Origin: an uncultured virus (IMG/VR IMGVR_UViG_3300025767_000007)
Lineage: Duplodnaviria > Heunggongvirae > Uroviricota > Caudoviricetes
Virus record (IMG/VR): IMGVR_UViG_3300025767_000007
Strand: one strand, 5' to 3'
Length of the DNA: 64,000 bases
Shown here: one piece after another, positions 18,575 through 61,829 of the stretch
Position numbering within the stretch: position 1 is the stretch's first letter
How the letters are laid out: each line of letters opens with the position of its first letter
The notes under the pieces: model-generated
Told to the model about the DNA's origin: nothing
Seen by the model: the letters and a program-made list of their open reading frames with translations, nothing else
The model's database searches: none
Made by a program: the position numbers and the translations under genes

Positions 18575-19027
18575 ATGGCCAACAATTTTAAAAAAGGAAC
18601 CTATTCGGTTCTCAACCCAAACAAGTACACAGGTAAAGGAGCTCCAACATATAGAAGTGGTTGGGAGTTAACCTTTATGAGATTCTGTGATAATAATCCT
18701 AATATTATATCTTGGGCAAGTGAAGCAGTTAGAATACCTTACAGAAATCCATTTACTGGAAAACAAACAACTTATGTCCCAGACTTTTTAATAACTTATA
18801 TGGGAAAAAATAATCAACGTAGAGCAGAACTAATCGAAGTTAAACCTAGAGCTCAAGTTACTTTAGAAGTAGCTCGTAGCCAGAAAGAAAAAGCGTCAGT
18901 AATACTTAATATGGCAAAGTGGGAAGCCGCTAGAGCCTGGTGCAAAGGAATGGGTTGTCAATTCCGTATTATAACAGAGGAAGATCTTTTTAATAAGGCT
19001 AGTCCTAACAGAACACGTCGTAAATAA
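18575..19027 (+). CDS. Head completion nuclease (T4 gp4-like, TnsA-type PD-(D/E)xK)
   Basis: NPNKYTG..YRSGWE..FCD.NP..WASE..IPY..YVPDF..IEVKP..N.AKWEAA..F.IITE. Confidence 0.9.
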   Translation: MANNFKKGTYSVLNPNKYTGKGAPTYRSGWELTFMRFCDNNPNIISWASEAVRIPYRNPFTGKQTTYVPDFLITYMGKNNQRRAELIEVKPRAQVTLEVARSQKEKASVILNMAKWEAARAWCKGMGCQFRIITEEDLFNKASPNRTRRK

Positions 19028-54441: not shown

Positions 54442-54840
54442 ATGAAAGGATTCTTTGATATGCATGTTAGTAAACTGGCTATTGTTGCCGCTTTTTCACT
54501 TTCAATGATGTTAATAACATTTAACATAGCAACAGCTCACGAATATTCATACAAGCATTATCATAATTCTCATGATAGTTGGGACGTTGACAGGTATGAT
54601 GATTATAGTTACTATCACAGTGATTATTATAAACGTTATAAAAGAAATGATCGCGAAAGAGAACATTGGGATTGGTATTATGACGATAAGAGTGGCCCAG
54701 AAAGAGAGGACACATATTACATGCCAACACCTTCTCCAATAATCGTGCAACCTGTTCCTCCTATAGGTTATGAAAGAGTTATTGCATATGATAACTTATG
54801 TCATTGCAATATATACGTTCTTGTACCTATTAGACAATAA
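54442..54840 (+). CDS. Exported Tyr/His/Asp-rich low-complexity protein
   Basis: Signal peptide ending IATA, then a Y/H/D/R-rich tract and a Pro-rich segment; the start may be 54460. Confidence 0.65.
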   Translation: MKGFFDMHVSKLAIVAAFSLSMMLITFNIATAHEYSYKHYHNSHDSWDVDRYDDYSYYHSDYYKRYKRNDREREHWDWYYDDKSGPEREDTYYMPTPSPIIVQPVPPIGYERVIAYDNLCHCNIYVLVPIRQ

Positions 54841-54929: not shown

Positions 54930-55148
54930 ATGGCAATAGAACTAACAGGCAAAGTAAAATGGTTTCAAGACGCAAAAGGATGGGGTTTTATTAAACCTGA
55001 CGATGGTTCCGATGATGTTTTTGCACACTATTCAGCAATTAATTCGGATGGATTTAAATCATTAAAAGAAGGTCAAGCAGTAACATTTGAAGTAATTCAA
55101 GGTGCTAAAGGACGTCAAGCCGCCAATATCAATTTAATTGAATCTTAA
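54930..55148 (+). CDS. cspA: Cold-shock protein
   Basis: GKVKWF, KGWGFI (RNP1), DVFAHYSAI (RNP2), LKEGQAV and QAAN. Confidence 0.95.
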
Positions 55149-55281: not shown

Positions 55282-55779
55282 ATGAGTTTAACTGACTTTA
55301 TCGACAGCAGTATAAGTCGATTCGCAAAATATTATTCTTGGTTTGCATTACTAATGGTATTGTTCGTTGTGATCAATGTCTTGGGAAGATATTTCTTTGA
55401 CATTCGTAATGATTATGCAGTTGATTCAACATGGCAATTATACGGTATGCTTATTATGTTTGGTTGCAGTTATTCATTAGGAAAAGAAGCACATATTAGA
55501 ACAGATCTGTTCTGGAACAATTATAAAGATCGTACAAAAGCAATTATTGACTTTGTAAGTTATCTCTTACTATTCTTTCCTTCATTTGCACTTATCACAT
55601 ACATCAGTTTCAATGATACATCAGCCGCTATTGAGATGAACGAACGTAGTTCTGAAACAATGGCTCAGCTTGTCATCTGGCCTATGAAGATTGGTATTAC
55701 ACTTGGCTTGGTACTTTTGATGGTACAAGCATTGAGTCAAATGATTAAATGTTATAGAAGGATTTTTATCAATGAGTAA
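55282..55779 (+). CDS. dctQ: TRAP transporter small permease
   Basis: Four TM segments, RYFF, HIRTD and WPMK. Confidence 0.9.
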   Translation: MSLTDFIDSSISRFAKYYSWFALLMVLFVVINVLGRYFFDIRNDYAVDSTWQLYGMLIMFGCSYSLGKEAHIRTDLFWNNYKDRTKAIIDFVSYLLLFFPSFALITYISFNDTSAAIEMNERSSETMAQLVIWPMKIGITLGLVLLMVQALSQMIKCYRRIFINE

Positions 55780-57166
55780 TGAATGGCTAGCAATGACAAT
55801 GTTATTTACAATGATTGCCGGCATATTTGTTGGAGTTCCAGTTAGTTTTACACTAACATTCTTAGCATTAATTTTTGGATTAATTGGATTAGGACTAAGT
55901 GTTTTTGATCTTACATATCTTAACCTATTAGGAGGTCTTTCAGACGAAGTACTAATGAGTATTCCTATGTTTATTCTGATGGGTTACATTGCTGAACGAG
56001 CTGGATTGGTAGAAAATTTATTTGAAAGTTTAAAAAAGGTATTTTCAGGCGTTCCTGGTAACCTATACATTGTTGTTATCTGTATTGCAGTATTAATTAG
56101 TTTAGCAACAGGAGTAGTTGGAGCGTCAGTAACATTACTAGGCATTATGGCCGCTCCAAGCATGATTAAACAAGGATATGATGCTAAACTATCAGCAGGA
56201 GTAATAGCAGGAGGCGGGTCTCTTATTATGATTCCTCCATCTATTCCCCTTATTGTAATGGCGCCTACTATGAATCTTAATATCATTGACGTATATGCGG
56301 CCGCAATGGGACCAGGACTAGCGATTGCATTTATGTATCTAGTATACGTTATATACCTTATAAAAACAAAGCCAGAGGTAGCACCTATGATGCCTGTGGA
56401 AGAAAGAGTAGAAATAGATTACAAGTTAATTCTGTTAACATTATGGCATATTGTGCCATTAGCGTCATTAATTCTTATTACACTAGGATCAATGTTATTT
56501 GGACTAGCAACTAGTACAGAAGCTGGTGCATTTGGTGCATTTGGTGCTTTATGTTTAGCCGCTATTAACAGAAAATTAACTTTAACAAATATTCAAGAAG
56601 CATTACTAAAAACTACTAACACGTCAGCAGTAGTAATGTTATTAGCAATTACGTCAACTATATTTGGTGCCGTATTTGCTTCCTTGGGTGGTGACAAAGT
56701 CATTGTATCGGTACTAACTTCGATGCCTATACCCGGATGGGCAATAGTTGGAGCGATATTAGTGTTATGTCATATTTTAGGCTGGCCCTTTGAGTGGCCA
56801 GTGGTAGTGCTAGTGTTCTTACCAATTTTCTTACCAGTATTAATTGATACTGGTGTTGACTTAATTTGGTTTGCGGCCGCTTTGGGTGTTATTTTACAAA
56901 CAGCATATTTAACACCTCCTGTAGCCTTAACCGGATACTACCTAAAACAGGTGGTGCCTTCGTGGGATCTTAAATTAATATTCAAAGCAATGATGCCCTT
57001 TATGTATATTCAGGTTATTTGTGTTGTAATATTGTTTATTACACCTGGCCTTGCAACATGGTTACCTAATTACCTAGCAGAGCAAAGAAAAAATATAGTA
57101 CAAGAAGTACTAGATGATGATGTCAAAGGACAGGAAGTCGACTTCCTAGGTGTCCTTGGACAATAA
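55772..57166 (+). CDS. dctM: TRAP transporter large permease
   Basis: GVPVSF, SIPMFILMG, IPPSI, TSTEAG and LTPPV; many TM helices. Confidence 0.93.
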   Translation: MSNEWLAMTMLFTMIAGIFVGVPVSFTLTFLALIFGLIGLGLSVFDLTYLNLLGGLSDEVLMSIPMFILMGYIAERAGLVENLFESLKKVFSGVPGNLYIVVICIAVLISLATGVVGASVTLLGIMAAPSMIKQGYDAKLSAGVIAGGGSLIMIPPSIPLIVMAPTMNLNIIDVYAAAMGPGLAIAFMYLVYVIYLIKTKPEVAPMMPVEERVEIDYKLILLTLWHIVPLASLILITLGSMLFGLATSTEAGAFGAFGALCLAAINRKLTLTNIQEALLKTTNTSAVVMLLAITSTIFGAVFASLGGDKVIVSVLTSMPIPGWAIVGAILVLCHILGWPFEWPVVVLVFLPIFLPVLIDTGVDLIWFAAALGVILQTAYLTPPVALTGYYLKQVVPSWDLKLIFKAMMPFMYIQVICVVILFITPGLATWLPNYLAEQRKNIVQEVLDDDVKGQEVDFLGVLGQ

Positions 57167-57185
57167 TATTTTGGAGAATAAAAAT

Positions 57186-58280
57186 ATGAAACGTTTCATC
57201 GGAGCGGTATTAGCTACCGCAATGTCATTTGGCGTAGTGGCTTCAGTAGCAACTGCAAATGCCAAAGAACTACAGATTGCATCTAGTTTTGGAGCAATCT
57301 CAACTTTTAACGAGCAAGCAAACTTTCTTGCCGAAAGAGTTAAAGTATTAACTGACGGAAAAATTGATATGAAAATCAGACCTTCCGGCGCATTAGTTCC
57401 TTCTTTTAAGGTTCTAGATGCTACGGCGTCAGGTGCAGTAGATGGTGCATGGACTCAGTCTTATTACTGGGTAGGAAAGTCAAAGACTCTTGCATTGTTT
57501 AATAGTCCGTTAGGAGGACCTTACGGTATGGACGGGATTGATTTCCTAGGTTGGATGTTCCACGGTGGTGGACTTGAATTGTATAACGATTTTTATCAGA
57601 ATGAGTTAAAAATGGATGTACAGGCACTTCCAGCAATGCCTACTCAGAATCAGCCATTGGGTTGGTTCCATCGCCCAATTAAAGATCTAGCAGATCTCAA
57701 AAACTTTAAATGTCGTCAAACTGGCGCCAACGTAGAACTTTATGCTCGTATGGGTATGCAGACTATTGGTATGCCAGGTGGTGAGATTATGGCCGCGGCC
57801 CAAAAGGGTGTTATTAATTGTGCTGAATTCGTTGGTGGTTTAGAAGACGAACGTCTTGGATTTCCTACAGTATGGAAATACTACTACTTGAATTCATTGC
57901 ATGAGCATTCAAATACTGGTGATCTATTGATTAACGGTAAAGTGTGGCGTTCAATGACTAAGCAACAGCAGACCGCTGTTCGTTCTGCCGCTTATGAGTC
58001 ATATCTATGGTGGTTAACTGATATTCAAGCAAAGAATGGTGAGGCACTTGCTAGAATGATCAAAGAGCATGGCGTTAGAGTTATGAAGACTCCAGCAGAT
58101 ATTTTGGTTGCTGAGTTAGAAACTATTGACGAAATGTTAGCAGAAAATGCCGCAAAGGATCCTTATTTTGCAAAAGTACTTGCTTCTCAGAAAGCATGGG
58201 CAAAGAAAGTAGTTCCATTTAAGAACGTAGCATTTACGCCTTATAACTATGCCGCAGATTACTACTGGAAGAAAAAGTAG
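57186..58280 (+). CDS. dctP: TRAP substrate-binding protein (TakP-like) with signal peptide
   Basis: GGAG SD before ATG 57186; signal peptide ending ANA; YYWVGK, GWF, KCR, MPGGE and AEFVG..D. Confidence 0.9.
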   Translation: MKRFIGAVLATAMSFGVVASVATANAKELQIASSFGAISTFNEQANFLAERVKVLTDGKIDMKIRPSGALVPSFKVLDATASGAVDGAWTQSYYWVGKSKTLALFNSPLGGPYGMDGIDFLGWMFHGGGLELYNDFYQNELKMDVQALPAMPTQNQPLGWFHRPIKDLADLKNFKCRQTGANVELYARMGMQTIGMPGGEIMAAAQKGVINCAEFVGGLEDERLGFPTVWKYYYLNSLHEHSNTGDLLINGKVWRSMTKQQQTAVRSAAYESYLWWLTDIQAKNGEALARMIKEHGVRVMKTPADILVAELETIDEMLAENAAKDPYFAKVLASQKAWAKKVVPFKNVAFTPYNYAADYYWKKK

Positions 58281-58471: not shown

Positions 58472-59410
58472 ATGACACAGAAAATTAGATGGGTTCTAGC
58501 ACATGAGCCAATTGAATTATTTCTAAGAGCGGCAAAAGTTTTCGCATCAGAAGTTAATGCAAAAGCAGAAGGCGCACTAGATATTGAAGTTATGACAATG
58601 AGTGAGTATTCTGCAAAGTATAATAACGGTGTTGTTGTTACTAAGCACGAACTTGTTGATATGATTAACAGAGGCGACATTGAAATGTCCCAAACATACA
58701 CAGTAGACATTGGCGAATATGATCACGAATTCCGTGCATTAGATATGCCATTCCTATTTGAGTCACACGACCACGCAACTAAGGTGTTCGAAGGCCCAAT
58801 CGGTCAGTCACTACTAGACGGATTAACAGAATCAGCTGGTGTTAAAGGTTTAGCCTTTACATACTCCGGTGGATATAGAATTATTCCTGGACAAGAAGGA
58901 ATTGATACTATTGAAGATATTAGAGGTCTAAAACTTCGTACTTCATTCTCACCTGTTGCTATTGAGACTTTCAAAGCAGTTGGTGCAGACGTAGTTCCTA
59001 TGGAACTTGAAGAAATGACAGACGCAATCCAAGACAAAGATATTCAAGTAGGTGAGTCTACTTACCCACGTATCTATGCATTAGGACAAGACAGAGTTTC
59101 TAAGGTTATTAACCACACAGAACACTCATTGTTCTTAACAAGCATCCTAATCAACCAAGACTTCTTTGCAACTCTTGGTGAAGAACTACAAGGTATTGTT
59201 GTAGACGCCGCTAAAACAGCCGCTAATTACGAACGTGTAATCAGCATTGAAGACGTTGCACTTACACAAGCTAAAGCTGAAAGCGATGGCATTGAAGTTC
59301 GTAGAATGTCAACAGAAGAAAAAGCTCGTTTCAAAGCCGCTACTGCTCATGTTTATGACATGTTCCCAGAGTTAGCTGGAACAGTTAAGAAGATCCAAGA
59401 TACAAAATAA
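58472..59410 (+). CDS. dctP: DctP-family solute-binding protein lacking a signal peptide
   Basis: LDMPFLF..DHA..V, GGYR, GLKLRT, F.AVGA..VPM and TEH; no hydrophobic leader. Confidence 0.85.
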   Translation: MTQKIRWVLAHEPIELFLRAAKVFASEVNAKAEGALDIEVMTMSEYSAKYNNGVVVTKHELVDMINRGDIEMSQTYTVDIGEYDHEFRALDMPFLFESHDHATKVFEGPIGQSLLDGLTESAGVKGLAFTYSGGYRIIPGQEGIDTIEDIRGLKLRTSFSPVAIETFKAVGADVVPMELEEMTDAIQDKDIQVGESTYPRIYALGQDRVSKVINHTEHSLFLTSILINQDFFATLGEELQGIVVDAAKTAANYERVISIEDVALTQAKAESDGIEVRRMSTEEKARFKAATAHVYDMFPELAGTVKKIQDTK

Positions 59411-59430
59411 AATATCTTAGAACTACTATG

Positions 59431-59460
59431 GAAAAGGCGCTATTTGGCGCCTTTTCTTTT
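59431..59460 (+). terminator. Rho-independent terminator
   Basis: GAAAAGGCGC/GCGCCTTTTC followed by TTTT. Confidence 0.85.
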
Positions 59461-59556
59461 GACTAAATTTTACTAGCCCTTTTTTATGAATAAACAACTA
59501 ATGGTATAAACTCTTTAACACGTTAACTAAATATTAGTAATGGATAGGAGAACATT

Positions 59557-60642
59557 ATGCCGGCAAGAAATCATAGAAATTGGTTAAAGAAACCATTAGT
59601 AGAATATGTTAGTAGCGAAATATATTCAAGTCAAGAAATATTTGAAGAAGAAATCGAAAGTATTTTCTCAAAGGTGTGGGTACCAGTATGTCACATCAGT
59701 GAAATGTATAATAAATTAGATTATCGAACATCTCAGATAGCAGGCATTAATATTTTAGTTTACAATACCGGAGATGGCGTTAAAGCATATCGTAATTATG
59801 GCAGTTGGGCACCTACTGGAACATTGCAAGCACCTATTGTAACAGTTGAACCACAACTACACAGCGAAGTAAAGCACGGAGGTATGGTATGGGTAACACT
59901 TGATCCTAATCCTACACAGAGTGTTGAAGAGTGGACAGCAGGTGCATTTGATTGCATTGCTGATGCTATTGACACAGAAGAACTAGAAATTTTTCATTAT
60001 CATAAAGCAATTATTCCTACCAACTACAAACTATGGCATGATACTAACAGTGAATTCTATCATGACTTCATGCATTACTTTAATCGTGTAACTGGTTTCA
60101 ACGATGAGTATTTTGCTAGAAAGAATATTCCCTTTGATAACGGGCATGTGAACGTTAGTAGTTTTACTGTAAATTATACAGAGTTTGATAAAGAAGGCGA
60201 TAGAGGTGAACTAAGTTTTCCTAACTTACCTCCAAACCAATGGTATATGGTAGACTTGTTTCCTGGCTTTAACTTTAATTTACGTGGTAGTGCATATCGT
60301 TCAGATAGTGTTACGCCACTTGGACCAAATAGTGTACTAATAGAGTTTAGAGGATACGGTTTAAAGAAAGATACTCCAGAAGAAAGACAAACTCGTATTA
60401 AACATCATAATACTATCTGGGGACCGTTTGGCAGAAACTTACATGAAGATCTTTTAGGTGTAACCGGGCAAGGAGCATCAATGTCTCCAGGCACAGAGAA
60501 AAGAAATATTTTACATGGAAGACATGAAAATAGTACTATACATGATGAAGTTGGTATGCGTCACTACTATGCAGAATGGGGAAAATATATGGAGTTAGAT
60601 CCTAGTAATCCAATAAAAGAGGTTGACAAAAAGGCCGCATAG
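59557..60642 (+). CDS. Aromatic ring-hydroxylating oxygenase alpha-subunit-like protein lacking Rieske ligands
   Basis: IY..EIF..E...IF.KVWVPVCH.SE N-terminus, NYKLWHDTNSEFYHDFMH iron motif, LFPG, PLGP, ED and E.GMRHYY..W; no CxH/CxxH. Confidence 0.85.
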   Translation: MPARNHRNWLKKPLVEYVSSEIYSSQEIFEEEIESIFSKVWVPVCHISEMYNKLDYRTSQIAGINILVYNTGDGVKAYRNYGSWAPTGTLQAPIVTVEPQLHSEVKHGGMVWVTLDPNPTQSVEEWTAGAFDCIADAIDTEELEIFHYHKAIIPTNYKLWHDTNSEFYHDFMHYFNRVTGFNDEYFARKNIPFDNGHVNVSSFTVNYTEFDKEGDRGELSFPNLPPNQWYMVDLFPGFNFNLRGSAYRSDSVTPLGPNSVLIEFRGYGLKKDTPEERQTRIKHHNTIWGPFGRNLHEDLLGVTGQGASMSPGTEKRNILHGRHENSTIHDEVGMRHYYAEWGKYMELDPSNPIKEVDKKAA

Positions 60643-60653
60643 TGTTATAAATA
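60623..60653 (+). promoter_or_regulatory. Composite sigma70/late promoter of the tmRNA gene
   Basis: TTGACA-17 nt-TATAAA with an extended TG; the same bases form TATAAATA. Confidence 0.7.
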
Positions 60654-60657
60654 TAAT

Positions 60658-61090
60658 ACAATGGTGAAGCATAACAAACGTTGTACAGGACTCGGGGGCA
60701 GTACCCGACGCCTCCACCATAAACACACGAACGAGGAATGGAACTATAAACAGTTTTAAAGATAAGTGTAGAATATTTTATATCGTTAAAGGTCATCTTA
60801 ACGTATCTACACAAACAATAGAAGATTGTTACGATTATTATTTTAGAAGAATGTGGAATAATAACGAGTGTTACATATACGAAGAAGGTTTTGAAGAATC
60901 GTATCGTGTTTTTATGATGGGGGCGAAATAGGATCGACTGGCAAGTAGTAGGAATGTGGAGTTGTCCGGATGTAAGCTCGGTTAACGCGAACAAAACGAT
61001 AATTGCAAACGATAATTTTGCATCTGAGGATTTTGCCCTAGCGGCTTAGTTACTCTGGGCGGGTACTGCCTGGAAACAGAAGTGCCACTT
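60658..61090 (+). ncRNA. ssrA: Circularly permuted two-piece tmRNA (alphaproteobacterial type); acceptor piece ~60658-60719, coding piece 60919-~61090
   Basis: T-arm TCGGG-GGCAGTA-CCCGA and 3' end CGCCTCC-ACCA come before the 5' end GGGGGCGAAATAGGATCGAC. The acceptor stem has G3.U70. The tag frame 61005-61049 reads ANDNFASEDFALAA*. Confidence 0.93.
60746..60931 (+). CDS. Putative ORF inside the tmRNA intervening segment (non-canonical ATA start or frameshifted)
   Basis: Frame INSFKDKCRIFYIVKGHLNVSTQTIEDCYDYYFRRMWNNNECYIYEEGFEESYRVFMMGAK*; GAGGA 8 nt upstream of the ATA; not in the supplied ORF track. Confidence 0.45.
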   Translation: MNSFKDKCRIFYIVKGHLNVSTQTIEDCYDYYFRRMWNNNECYIYEEGFEESYRVFMMGAK

Positions 61091-61103
61091 AAAGTGAATA
61101 ACA

Positions 61104-61829
61104 ATGATTGAAAATTTCCATACAAGTGACTTTTTAAGGATTCGGTATATGTCTTCTCCGCAAGAACGATCCTCAAATAGAGTACTAATATGGTTTTCTG
61201 GAATAGCTGGAGCACTTGGCTCAAAAGCAAGACCAAGTGGATTTTTTGAAAGTTTAAACATTGATTCAATTATTTGGGTAGATGAGAAAGCACCTTTCTC
61301 TTGGGGCAATAGTATAGATATTGAAGAACTTTGTAAAACACTTCTGCCTCTAACAAAAAATAAAGAATTACTATTTTTTGGAAATTCAATGGGAGGTTTT
61401 CTAGCAATATTACTTTCTAAGTATCTTAAACCTATAAAGGTTATTACAATGAATCCTCAATATAGTGTTCATCCTGATATAATATTAGAAAAGAGATGGC
61501 GTGATTTTATCAATGTAATTACACAGTTTAAACACAAAGATCTGACTAACAGTTTTATTCCTGATACTGATTATGCAATAATGTTTGGCGTTGATGATCA
61601 GGACGAAATGCATTTTAAGTTATTCAATACCCACCGTAATCTTCCAAATGTACAGATTATTAAATTTTTAGATTACAAAACTAACTTAGATAATGCCGCA
61701 CATCAGGCAGGGGTATATCTTAATAGACTTGGCATCTTCCGTGATGTTATTGCAAACTTTTATAATAGTAAATCACTGAAAGAAATTTTTATAAAAAACT
61801 CCGTTAGATATACAGGGCTGAAACATTAA
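61104..61829 (+). CDS. Alpha/beta hydrolase
   Basis: WFSG oxyanion segment, GNSMGG nucleophile elbow, a candidate Asp (DDQD) and a late His (AAHQ). Confidence 0.75.
   Translation: MIENFHTSDFLRIRYMSSPQERSSNRVLIWFSGIAGALGSKARPSGFFESLNIDSIIWVDEKAPFSWGNSIDIEELCKTLLPLTKNKELLFFGNSMGGFLAILLSKYLKPIKVITMNPQYSVHPDIILEKRWRDFINVITQFKHKDLTNSFIPDTDYAIMFGVDDQDEMHFKLFNTHRNLPNVQIIKFLDYKTNLDNAAHQAGVYLNRLGIFRDVIANFYNSKSLKEIFIKNSVRYTGLKH

Follow-up and report, generated by a model that had tools for sequence, protein, structure and literature searches.

In Rieske oxygenases, the electron passes from the Rieske cluster of one alpha subunit to the iron of the adjacent alpha subunit. The canonical methanesulfonate monooxygenase of the literature is MsmABCD of Methylosulfonomonas methylovora M2. 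According to the accessible part of Henriques & De Marco 2015 (PMC4433239), a 26-residue spacer in the Rieske motif of MsmA is common to every proven methanesulfonate utiliser, and many MsmA proteins predicted from Global Ocean Sampling (GOS) and virome data, that of phage HMO-2011 included, are without the four Cys/His residues; the SAR116 strain IMCC1322, which is infected by HMO-2011, has two MsmA annotations, only one with the motif. In the available text of the Kieft et al. preprint, viral msmA is a marine auxiliary metabolic gene (AMG) with a ratio of nonsynonymous to synonymous substitution rates (dN/dS) below 1, and the word 'Rieske' has 0 occurrences in the main text. Marine virome surveys, in the excerpts available, count viral msmA as a gene 'capable of degrading methanesulfonate'. 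According to the accessible part of PMC4408171, the two metal sites are divided in the N7-demethylase of Pseudomonas putida CBB5: the Rieske cluster is missing from NdmC and resides on NdmD. The present analysis concerns a 64,000-nt stretch of DNA from an uncultured virus (IMG/VR IMGVR_UViG_3300025767_000007), called the window below, in which the open reading frame (ORF) at 59557-60642, called the query, encodes an MsmA-type oxygenase alpha subunit reduced to its catalytic half.

The absence of the Rieske ligands from phage "MsmA" is correct but not new, having been in print since 2015. A first-pass annotation, made from the sequence alone, had described the deletion and left both the descent from MsmA and the 2015 publication unrecognised. 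The cellular context of the gene suggests the electron source of the phage enzyme: in SAR116, the missing half is found on a catalytically dead sister protein that is fused to a reductase. We consider the chance somewhat better than even that the query is a phage-borne copy of the catalytic alpha subunit from a split monooxygenase of the methanesulfonate type, an enzyme native to SAR116; the phage subunit would rely on the electron-delivery half of the host. A literature search found no description of such a split alpha/alpha-prime arrangement, subscription journals and supplements being outside its reach.

Deletion of the Rieske site and retention of the iron site

The features of the query protein that bear on its two metal sites were as follows.

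59557..60642, plus strand: Rieske-less MsmA-type oxygenase alpha subunit, catalytic half only (361 aa, ATG start)
59782..59871, plus strand: stump of 30 aa in place of 77 aa with CxH-x26-CxxH (codons 76-105, from the alignment to canonical MsmA)
60052..60075, plus strand: EFYHDFMH with E166 and the predicted iron ligands H169 and H173 (codons 166-173)
60448..60450, plus strand: D298, likely carboxylate ligand of the mononuclear iron (from the profile alignment to terephthalate dioxygenase alpha)

A Pfam scan of the query protein gave a single family, PF00848 (Ring_hydroxyl_A; 28.5 bits, cut-off 24.9, residues 142-346), and no match to PF00355 (Rieske). Alignment and structure prediction had been proposed as checks in the first-pass annotation. 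In the alignment, the segment K76-V105 had 30 aa where MsmA of Filomicrobium has 77 aa; the 47 residues that are gone include CPHRG and CMFHAW. All four ligands of the CxH...CxxH site of Rieske non-heme iron oxygenase alpha subunits were missing, and with them the CxH-x26-CxxH spacer that is the hallmark of MsmA. Two cysteines only, C45 and C133, were found in the query. Because both lie outside the cluster loops and are common to canonical MsmA, substitute cluster ligands were excluded. The deletion of the [2Fe-2S] site was thereby confirmed, and the alternative cluster ligands that the first-pass annotation had named as grounds for refuting it were absent.

The remainder of the alpha subunit was retained. 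Residues 18-80 aligned with the start of the Rieske domain in CntA and other alpha subunits (E ~1e-7). The AlphaFold2 model, built from a 66-sequence alignment, had a predicted local distance difference test (pLDDT) of 89.9 and a predicted template modelling score (pTM) of 0.89, and kept the whole catalytic domain together with strands at residues 42-114, which we read in the model as the probable base of the Rieske domain. Comparison of the model with solved Rieske-oxygenase alpha chains by Foldseek gave template modelling (TM) scores of 0.70-0.75 over the whole chain, in agreement with an alpha-subunit fold. No PHROGs family matched the query at E<=1e-5.

The iron region NYKLWHDTNSEFYHDFMH was present in the query. 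The profile of the family alignment A2 matched terephthalate dioxygenase alpha with an E value of 1.6e-67, and in this profile H169 and H173 aligned with the two histidine ligands of that enzyme. The segment bearing the Asp ligand read gpfgrnlhED in the query and gpaGfismED in terephthalate dioxygenase alpha, so that the distal ED mentioned in the first-pass annotation corresponds to E297-D298. H169, H173 and D298 were nearly invariant in A2, and by alignment with terephthalate dioxygenase and CntA they would form the 2-His-1-carboxylate ligand set. E166 lies three residues N-terminal of H169, at the place of the Glu in the CntA string mECYH; in other Rieske oxygenases, CntA included, this position holds the carboxylate bridging to the Rieske histidine of the neighbouring subunit. 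The mononuclear-iron region was thus retained, as had been annotated. EFYHDFMH was found in all 161 relatives examined, including 57 that retain the Rieske motif. The tightened H-x3-H spacing noted at first pass was therefore real and not peculiar to the query; judged from these alignments, it is a trait of the whole MsmA family.

Conservation of the family and selection

A word-index search with the query gave 1203 relatives at E<=0.001. Among the 120 relatives listed, 119 were 350-367 aa long and none had PF00355. A scan of viral contigs gave at least 598 stretches encoding this viral "msmA" auxiliary gene family. The deletion is accordingly common to a large family.

The dN/dS of the phage copies, computed against viral relatives with unsaturated synonymous divergence, was 0.04-0.10 for the whole gene, 0.02-0.04 for residues 140-345 and 0.12-0.30 for the stump (codons 76-105). 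The stump was the least constrained stretch of the gene and the catalytic domain the most constrained. The conservation and dN/dS check proposed at first pass thus showed that the phage gene is under purifying selection, which is strong on the iron ligands.

The Rieske-less subunit in SAR116 operons

A scan of genome contigs gave 159 relatives, of which 80 were analysed. Among these 80, 22 were Rieske-less (72-88% identity to the query) and 58 were canonical MsmA, which matched the query from end to end at 53-58% identity with an identical iron motif. The canonical loci had the layout seen in Filomicrobium, where the genes after MsmA are msmB and those for a Rieske ferredoxin, an FNR-type reductase and TauE. 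A single conserved layout was shared by 17 of the Rieske-less loci, which were SAR116-type chromosomal contigs: an ABC uptake system of the SsuA family in divergent orientation, a fusion protein of 796-857 aa, MsmB, a Rieske ferredoxin, a 274-aa ORF and the Rieske-less alpha subunit, then a LysR gene on the opposite strand, TauE, a PanB-like gene, FTHFS and FolD. The Rieske ferredoxin gene (HcaC-like, corresponding to msmC) was present in every complete SAR116 operon. The context of SsuA-family binding protein, TauE sulfite exporters, PanB-like protein, FTHFS and FolD fits a predicted role in C1-sulfonate metabolism.

The fusion protein consisted of an MsmA-type Rieske domain, a diverged alpha catalytic domain and a ferredoxin-NAD reductase of the HcaD/AndAa type (1e-85). 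It was encoded in the locus in 13 of the 17 SAR116 loci and about 12 kb away in 2; the contig ended too early in the other 2. Fifteen of 96 Puniceispirillaceae genomes had the Rieske-less alpha subunit, and the fusion was present in all 15. No canonical MsmA-type match was found among the 96 genomes; a Puniceispirillales genome outside Puniceispirillaceae (G006) had a canonical 424-aa frame only.

In all 13 fusions examined, CPHRG...CMFHAW was kept and both histidines of the iron motif were lost, the motif reading for example QFANTIFH or KFHQDFMK. The same 13 proteins missed 10-16 residues including the HED segment that bears the Asp ligand. The pseudo-catalytic domain of the fusion nevertheless keeps the Ring_hydroxyl_A/alpha fold in an Atlas model (TM 0.69-0.70 to viral alpha clusters). 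Mean pairwise identity of the fusion in 10 genomes was 88% for the Rieske domain, 42% for the pseudo-catalytic domain and 76% for the reductase. For the Rieske-less alpha subunit in the same 10 genomes, it was 94% for the catalytic domain and 81% for the Rieske remnant. The alpha subunit and the fusion, called alpha-prime below, thus show complementary loss of metal ligands and complementary constraint.

The phage lacks these partner genes. No reductase, ferredoxin, beta subunit or other electron-transfer protein was found among the 72 ORFs of the window. The nearest record, G001, is a sister viral contig (244,432 bp, estimated 74% complete) with the same oxygenase gene at 99% identity, and it had no match to PF00355, PF00866 (beta subunit) or PF07992 (Pyr_redox_2). 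Both results agree with the first-pass annotation, which had seen no such gene nearby. No MsmB, MsmC, 274-aa ORF or separate Rieske partner was found in 86 viral-like loci (819 kb). The set of msmB, msmC and reductase is thus found beside the cellular orthologues and not beside the phage gene.

Two further observations were made in these operons. An ORF of 270-293 aa (L015:6921-7742 and its counterparts in 15 SAR116 loci) always stood directly upstream of the Rieske-less alpha gene. It was directly preceded by msmC, except in two loci of Puniceispirillum, where a dmsABC-like molybdopterin oxidoreductase set was inserted between the Rieske ferredoxin gene and this ORF (L013:2343-6910 and L021:2233-6818). 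Proximity of msmA and dmsABC in SAR116 is reported in the accessible part of PMC8547437, and these insertions fit that report. The 274-aa ORF had no Pfam or NCBIfam family; an Atlas search gave a DUF5996-like lead (TM 0.78 to a DUF5996 cluster), which is a lead only. Its product may help to assemble the split enzyme or serve it as an accessory factor.

Phylogenetic analysis

Quick maximum-likelihood trees were constructed. In the tree of 116 rows, for which the 80 viral sequences that best matched the query were taken, so that the sample leans towards its relatives, the Rieske-less proteins formed one clade (100 in the SH-like approximate likelihood ratio test, SH-aLRT). Within it, the 80 viral rows, 4 stand-alone contigs from metagenome-assembled genomes (MAGs) and the window formed one clade (97 SH-aLRT), from which the 17 operon copies were separate. 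Also outside this 85-row viral clade, on long branches, stood HMO-2011 and one MAG contig. In a tree of three groups, the Rieske-less and the fusion clades (100 SH-aLRT each) were both placed inside the canonical MsmA radiation. The position of the Rieske-less clade inside that radiation (97 SH-aLRT) shows descent from the MsmA lineage.

Proposed mechanism

The ancestor of the Rieske-less clade would have lost the two cluster-binding loops and kept the base of the beta-sandwich, the iron site (H169, H173, D298) and E166. In cells, the cluster would be supplied in trans by alpha-prime, in which the MsmA-type Rieske site is kept, the iron ligands are lost and the chain ends in a ferredoxin-NAD reductase. 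Since the electron crosses between neighbouring alpha subunits, a cluster-only alpha-prime and an iron-only alpha can rebuild one path. A mixed alpha/alpha-prime assembly with MsmB and MsmC would restore one complete electron path, which would run from NADH through the reductase domain, MsmC and the Rieske cluster on alpha-prime to the iron on alpha. The phage protein, judged from its gene content and that of the cellular operons, probably depends on a Rieske donor of the host. The phage alpha subunit, encoded behind a late-type promoter, would plug into the electron-delivery half of the host enzyme, and more sulfonate would be cleaved to sulfite and formaldehyde during infection. A wider formulation, that the SAR116 enzyme is an obligate hetero-alpha Rieske oxygenase made of two half-dead paralogues and that several marine phage types captured the catalytic half only, falls in our judgement just short of an even chance.

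Several points weigh against this proposal. The alpha and alpha-prime clades were not resolved as sisters in the three-group tree, so the tree does not demonstrate that they arose by a simple duplication with complementary decay afterwards. Methanesulfonate is the putative substrate of the SAR116 enzyme, deduced from the operon context. As to the host of the phage, its large terminase subunit (TerL) was at most 50% identical to that of any cultured phage, the nearest relatives being PA5oct-, Atu_ph07- and Phosso-like jumbo phages; the window has no transfer RNA (tRNA) gene that would serve as a clue to the host; and its DctM was at most 42% identical to genes in the 96 SAR116-family genomes. 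The mechanism fails for this phage if its host lacks the fusion protein. In 3 of 4 metatranscriptome runs, which came from different studies, parts of the oxygenase gene were covered by RNA-library contigs that match it exactly or differ by one letter, which counts in favour of the proposal and against decay of the gene; the coverage was patchy and of low depth, however, and RNA libraries can contain DNA. No contig covered the gene body in run X17, and several bins were bare in other runs, which does not show silence. In addition, the direct donor could be MsmC, the soluble Rieske ferredoxin, and not alpha-prime.

Alternative explanations

Direct reduction by a soluble Rieske ferredoxin is the main rival. 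The phage alpha subunit, as a homo-oligomer with or without host MsmB, would receive electrons from a ferredoxin docking at the site of the deleted loops, and the fusion would be uninvolved. The regular presence of the HcaC-like gene in complete SAR116 operons agrees with this, as does the precision of the deletion, which is confined to the cluster-binding loops of the domain; in NdmCDE, moreover, the cluster comes from a separate protein and not from a co-assembled alpha subunit (accessible part of PMC4408171). However, the conserved Rieske domain of the fusion and its folded pseudo-catalytic domain would then have no explanation, nor would the co-occurrence of the fusion with the Rieske-less alpha subunit in 15 of 15 genomes, and we regard this route as unlikely. 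A different iron-dependent reaction without external electrons, for which the cluster would be dispensable, would account for its absence across a family of 1203 matches (0 of 120 listed with PF00355). It is quite improbable, as the operons of the cellular orthologues also encode a reductase, a ferredoxin and a paralogue that bears the Rieske site, the active-site motif is that of canonical MsmA, and E166 at the bridging-carboxylate position is kept.

The query could also be a non-working oxygenase, acting as a decoy or modulator that displaces the host catalytic alpha subunit or as a binder of a small sulfonate or acid. A phage without any electron-transfer partner, and a phage clade distinct from the cellular clade (97 SH-aLRT), are in keeping with such a role; yet a decoy needs no intact ligands, and the iron motif in 161 of 161 relatives and the low dN/dS of the catalytic domain make the role improbable. 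That the gene is a decaying, non-functional allele is suggested by the deletion of its defining cofactor site and is contradicted by the intact frame, the confidently predicted fold, the dN/dS of 0.04-0.10 and the same architecture in at least 598 viral stretches and 22 genome-contig loci; the probability of decay is very small, and the unique decaying allele that the first-pass annotation had set as grounds for refutation does not describe this gene. Of the four roles proposed in that annotation, a subunit mixing into host oxygenase trimers comes close to the split-enzyme reading, as a catalytic partner and not as a modulator. No support was found for an iron-saving variant, for a ligand binder or for chemistry that dispenses with external electrons, given the reductase, ferredoxin and Rieske paralogue in cells and the strongly conserved ligands.

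Putative expression signals of the oxygenase gene

Three features upstream of the oxygenase gene were read directly from the sequence.

59546..59550, plus strand: ribosome-binding site AGGAG, 6 nt 5' of the ATG
59528..59533, plus strand: promoter-like hexamer TAAATA, 24 nt 5' of the start codon
59431..59460, plus strand: 10-bp inverted repeat (59431-59440 / 59447-59456), then TTTT

TAAATA was rare in the window, with 53 copies against 119 expected, and all 100 shuffles gave higher counts. Among the plus-strand copies, 16 of 37 lay within 60 nt upstream of ORF starts, a zone to which 5.7% of positions belong. From this distribution, TAAATA appears to behave as a real promoter element and the copy at 59528-59533 is credible, in line with the promoter assigned to the gene at first pass. 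A T4-type late promoter core would be expected to show just this combination of depletion with crowding 5' of ORF starts on the plus strand.

The inverted repeat with its T-run is likely the terminator of the upstream leaderless DctP gene and would separate that gene from the oxygenase gene. A consensus terminator scan of 59300-61200 flagged nothing, this repeat included. RNA-library contigs over the DctP gene stopped at 59339-59417, just 5' of the inverted repeat, in 4 runs.

Neighbouring genes in the phage

The window belongs to a marine jumbo myovirus. Its structural and packaging genes include those for tail sheath and tube, for baseplate and fibre proteins and for the large terminase; it also encodes a gp32-like single-stranded DNA-binding protein, UvsX, helicases, a primase and NrdAB.

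A permuted two-piece transfer-messenger RNA (tmRNA) gene was found at 60657-61049 on the plus strand (extended 60619-61089), starting 15 nt after the stop codon of the oxygenase gene. It scored 105.9 bits with RF04321 and 101.3 bits with alpha_tmRNA RF01849, and ARAGORN was silent. The tag reading frame gave ANDNFASEDFALAA, and the spacer between the two pieces was long, about 190 nt. The match to an alpha-type tmRNA is a weak hint of a possible alphaproteobacterial host.

A complete tripartite ATP-independent periplasmic (TRAP) transporter (DctQ, DctM, DctP) was encoded at 55282-58280 on the plus strand. Its DctP1 (57150-58280) had a hydrophobic leader and was closest to keto-acid/lactate binders (7ug8, 6e-43; 2zzv, 7e-30). 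DctP2 (58472-59410, plus strand, 312 aa) was a generic DctP (PF03480, 2e-51) that starts MTQKIRWVLAHEP, without a hydrophobic leader, and was covered by RNA-library contigs in 4 of 4 runs. The ligands of DctP had been suggested at first pass for a substrate screen of the oxygenase. TRAP genes stood beside the oxygenase gene in only 2 of the 86 viral-like loci, both of them from the query phage, and TRAP uptake was rejected as a clue to the substrate; with a hairpin and T-run also separating the two units, the link is weak.

Upstream of the transporter, a cold-shock-domain protein was encoded at 54930-55148 on the plus strand (PF00313, 8e-30). In 19 other viral loci (L086-L124), a gene 37-42% identical to it preceded the Rieske-less msmA by about 1 kb, giving 21 of 86 in total. 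The ORF at 54442-54840 on the plus strand (132 aa) had a signal-peptide-like N-terminus, a body rich in His, Tyr, Asp and Trp (HEYSYKHYHNSHDSWDVDRYDDYSYYHSDYY...) and no Pfam family; its product could be a secreted metal-binding peptide. A protein with a TnsA-like endonuclease N-terminal domain (PF08722, 5e-23) was encoded at 18575-19027 on the plus strand amid tail and structural genes and may be a homing-type endonuclease.

Comparison with described systems

Canonical MsmA of the Filomicrobium, Methylocella and Hansschlegelia loci has the identical NYKLWHDTNSEFYHDFMHY and the same HED segment as the query; the query differs from it in having neither the CxH-x26-CxxH Rieske site nor the downstream genes msmB, msmC and an FNR-type msmD. 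The solved alpha subunits of terephthalate dioxygenase (7vju, 7q04), the salicylate 5-hydroxylase NagG (7c8z) and the carnitine monooxygenase CntA (6y9c) share the fold of the query, whereas they possess the Rieske cluster and an H-x4-H motif in place of the H-x3-H of the MsmA family.

Among phages, gp61 of HMO-2011 (YP_008320323.1), annotated as 'methanesulfonate monooxygenase' of a Puniceispirillum phage, is likewise Rieske-less with PF00848 only, and shares 68% identity with the query over 98% of its length. HMO-2011 infects a cultured SAR116 strain and has a genome of 55 kb, whereas the query is carried by a myovirus of at least 244 kb and, unlike the HMO-2011 gene, is flanked by a TRAP transporter cluster and a two-piece tmRNA gene. 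The closest cellular counterpart is the Rieske-less MsmA paralogue of the SAR116 msm operons (for example L015:8001-9092), with 72-75% identity, the same 47-aa deletion, the same iron motif and a position in one clade with the viral copies (100 SH-aLRT). It sits with its presumed partners (the fusion, MsmB, MsmC and the 274-aa ORF), whereas the phage copy stands alone.

If the phage protein cannot take electrons alone, its effect on the sulfur cycle hinges on hosts that own the Rieske-bearing partner; should the SAR116 enzyme be an obligate hetero-alpha oxygenase, a widespread viral AMG would act only as a subunit inserted into the electron-delivery scaffold of a host enzyme. Surveys of msmA keyed to the 26-residue Rieske spacer would, in SAR116, catch the dead fusion and miss the real catalytic subunit.

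The nearest analogue of the split is NdmC/NdmD/NdmE, in which a cluster-less catalytic subunit is likewise combined with a cluster on the reductase polypeptide (accessible part of PMC4408171). The cellular SAR116 orthologues show this combination of a cluster-less subunit with a Rieske-bearing reductase, and the phage has the first half only. A profile search of the PDB gave weak matches to NdmA (2e-12) and NdmB (8e-08) and listed no NdmC chain. Specific homology to NdmC/NdmD and a glutathione-S-transferase (GST)-like NdmE was not found, and in the SAR116 msm operon no GST-like counterpart was seen, the 274-aa ORF occupying its place. Membership in the NdmCDE family is not claimed; the profiles point to a general superfamily relation. 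The SAR116 split differs from NdmCDE in its independent origin, in a reductase of the HcaD/AndAa type that carries a whole degenerate alpha subunit, and in the presence of a beta subunit and a separate Rieske ferredoxin. If the proposed assembly is true, it would be the second, independent Rieske oxygenase with its two metal sites on separate polypeptides, after NdmCDE.

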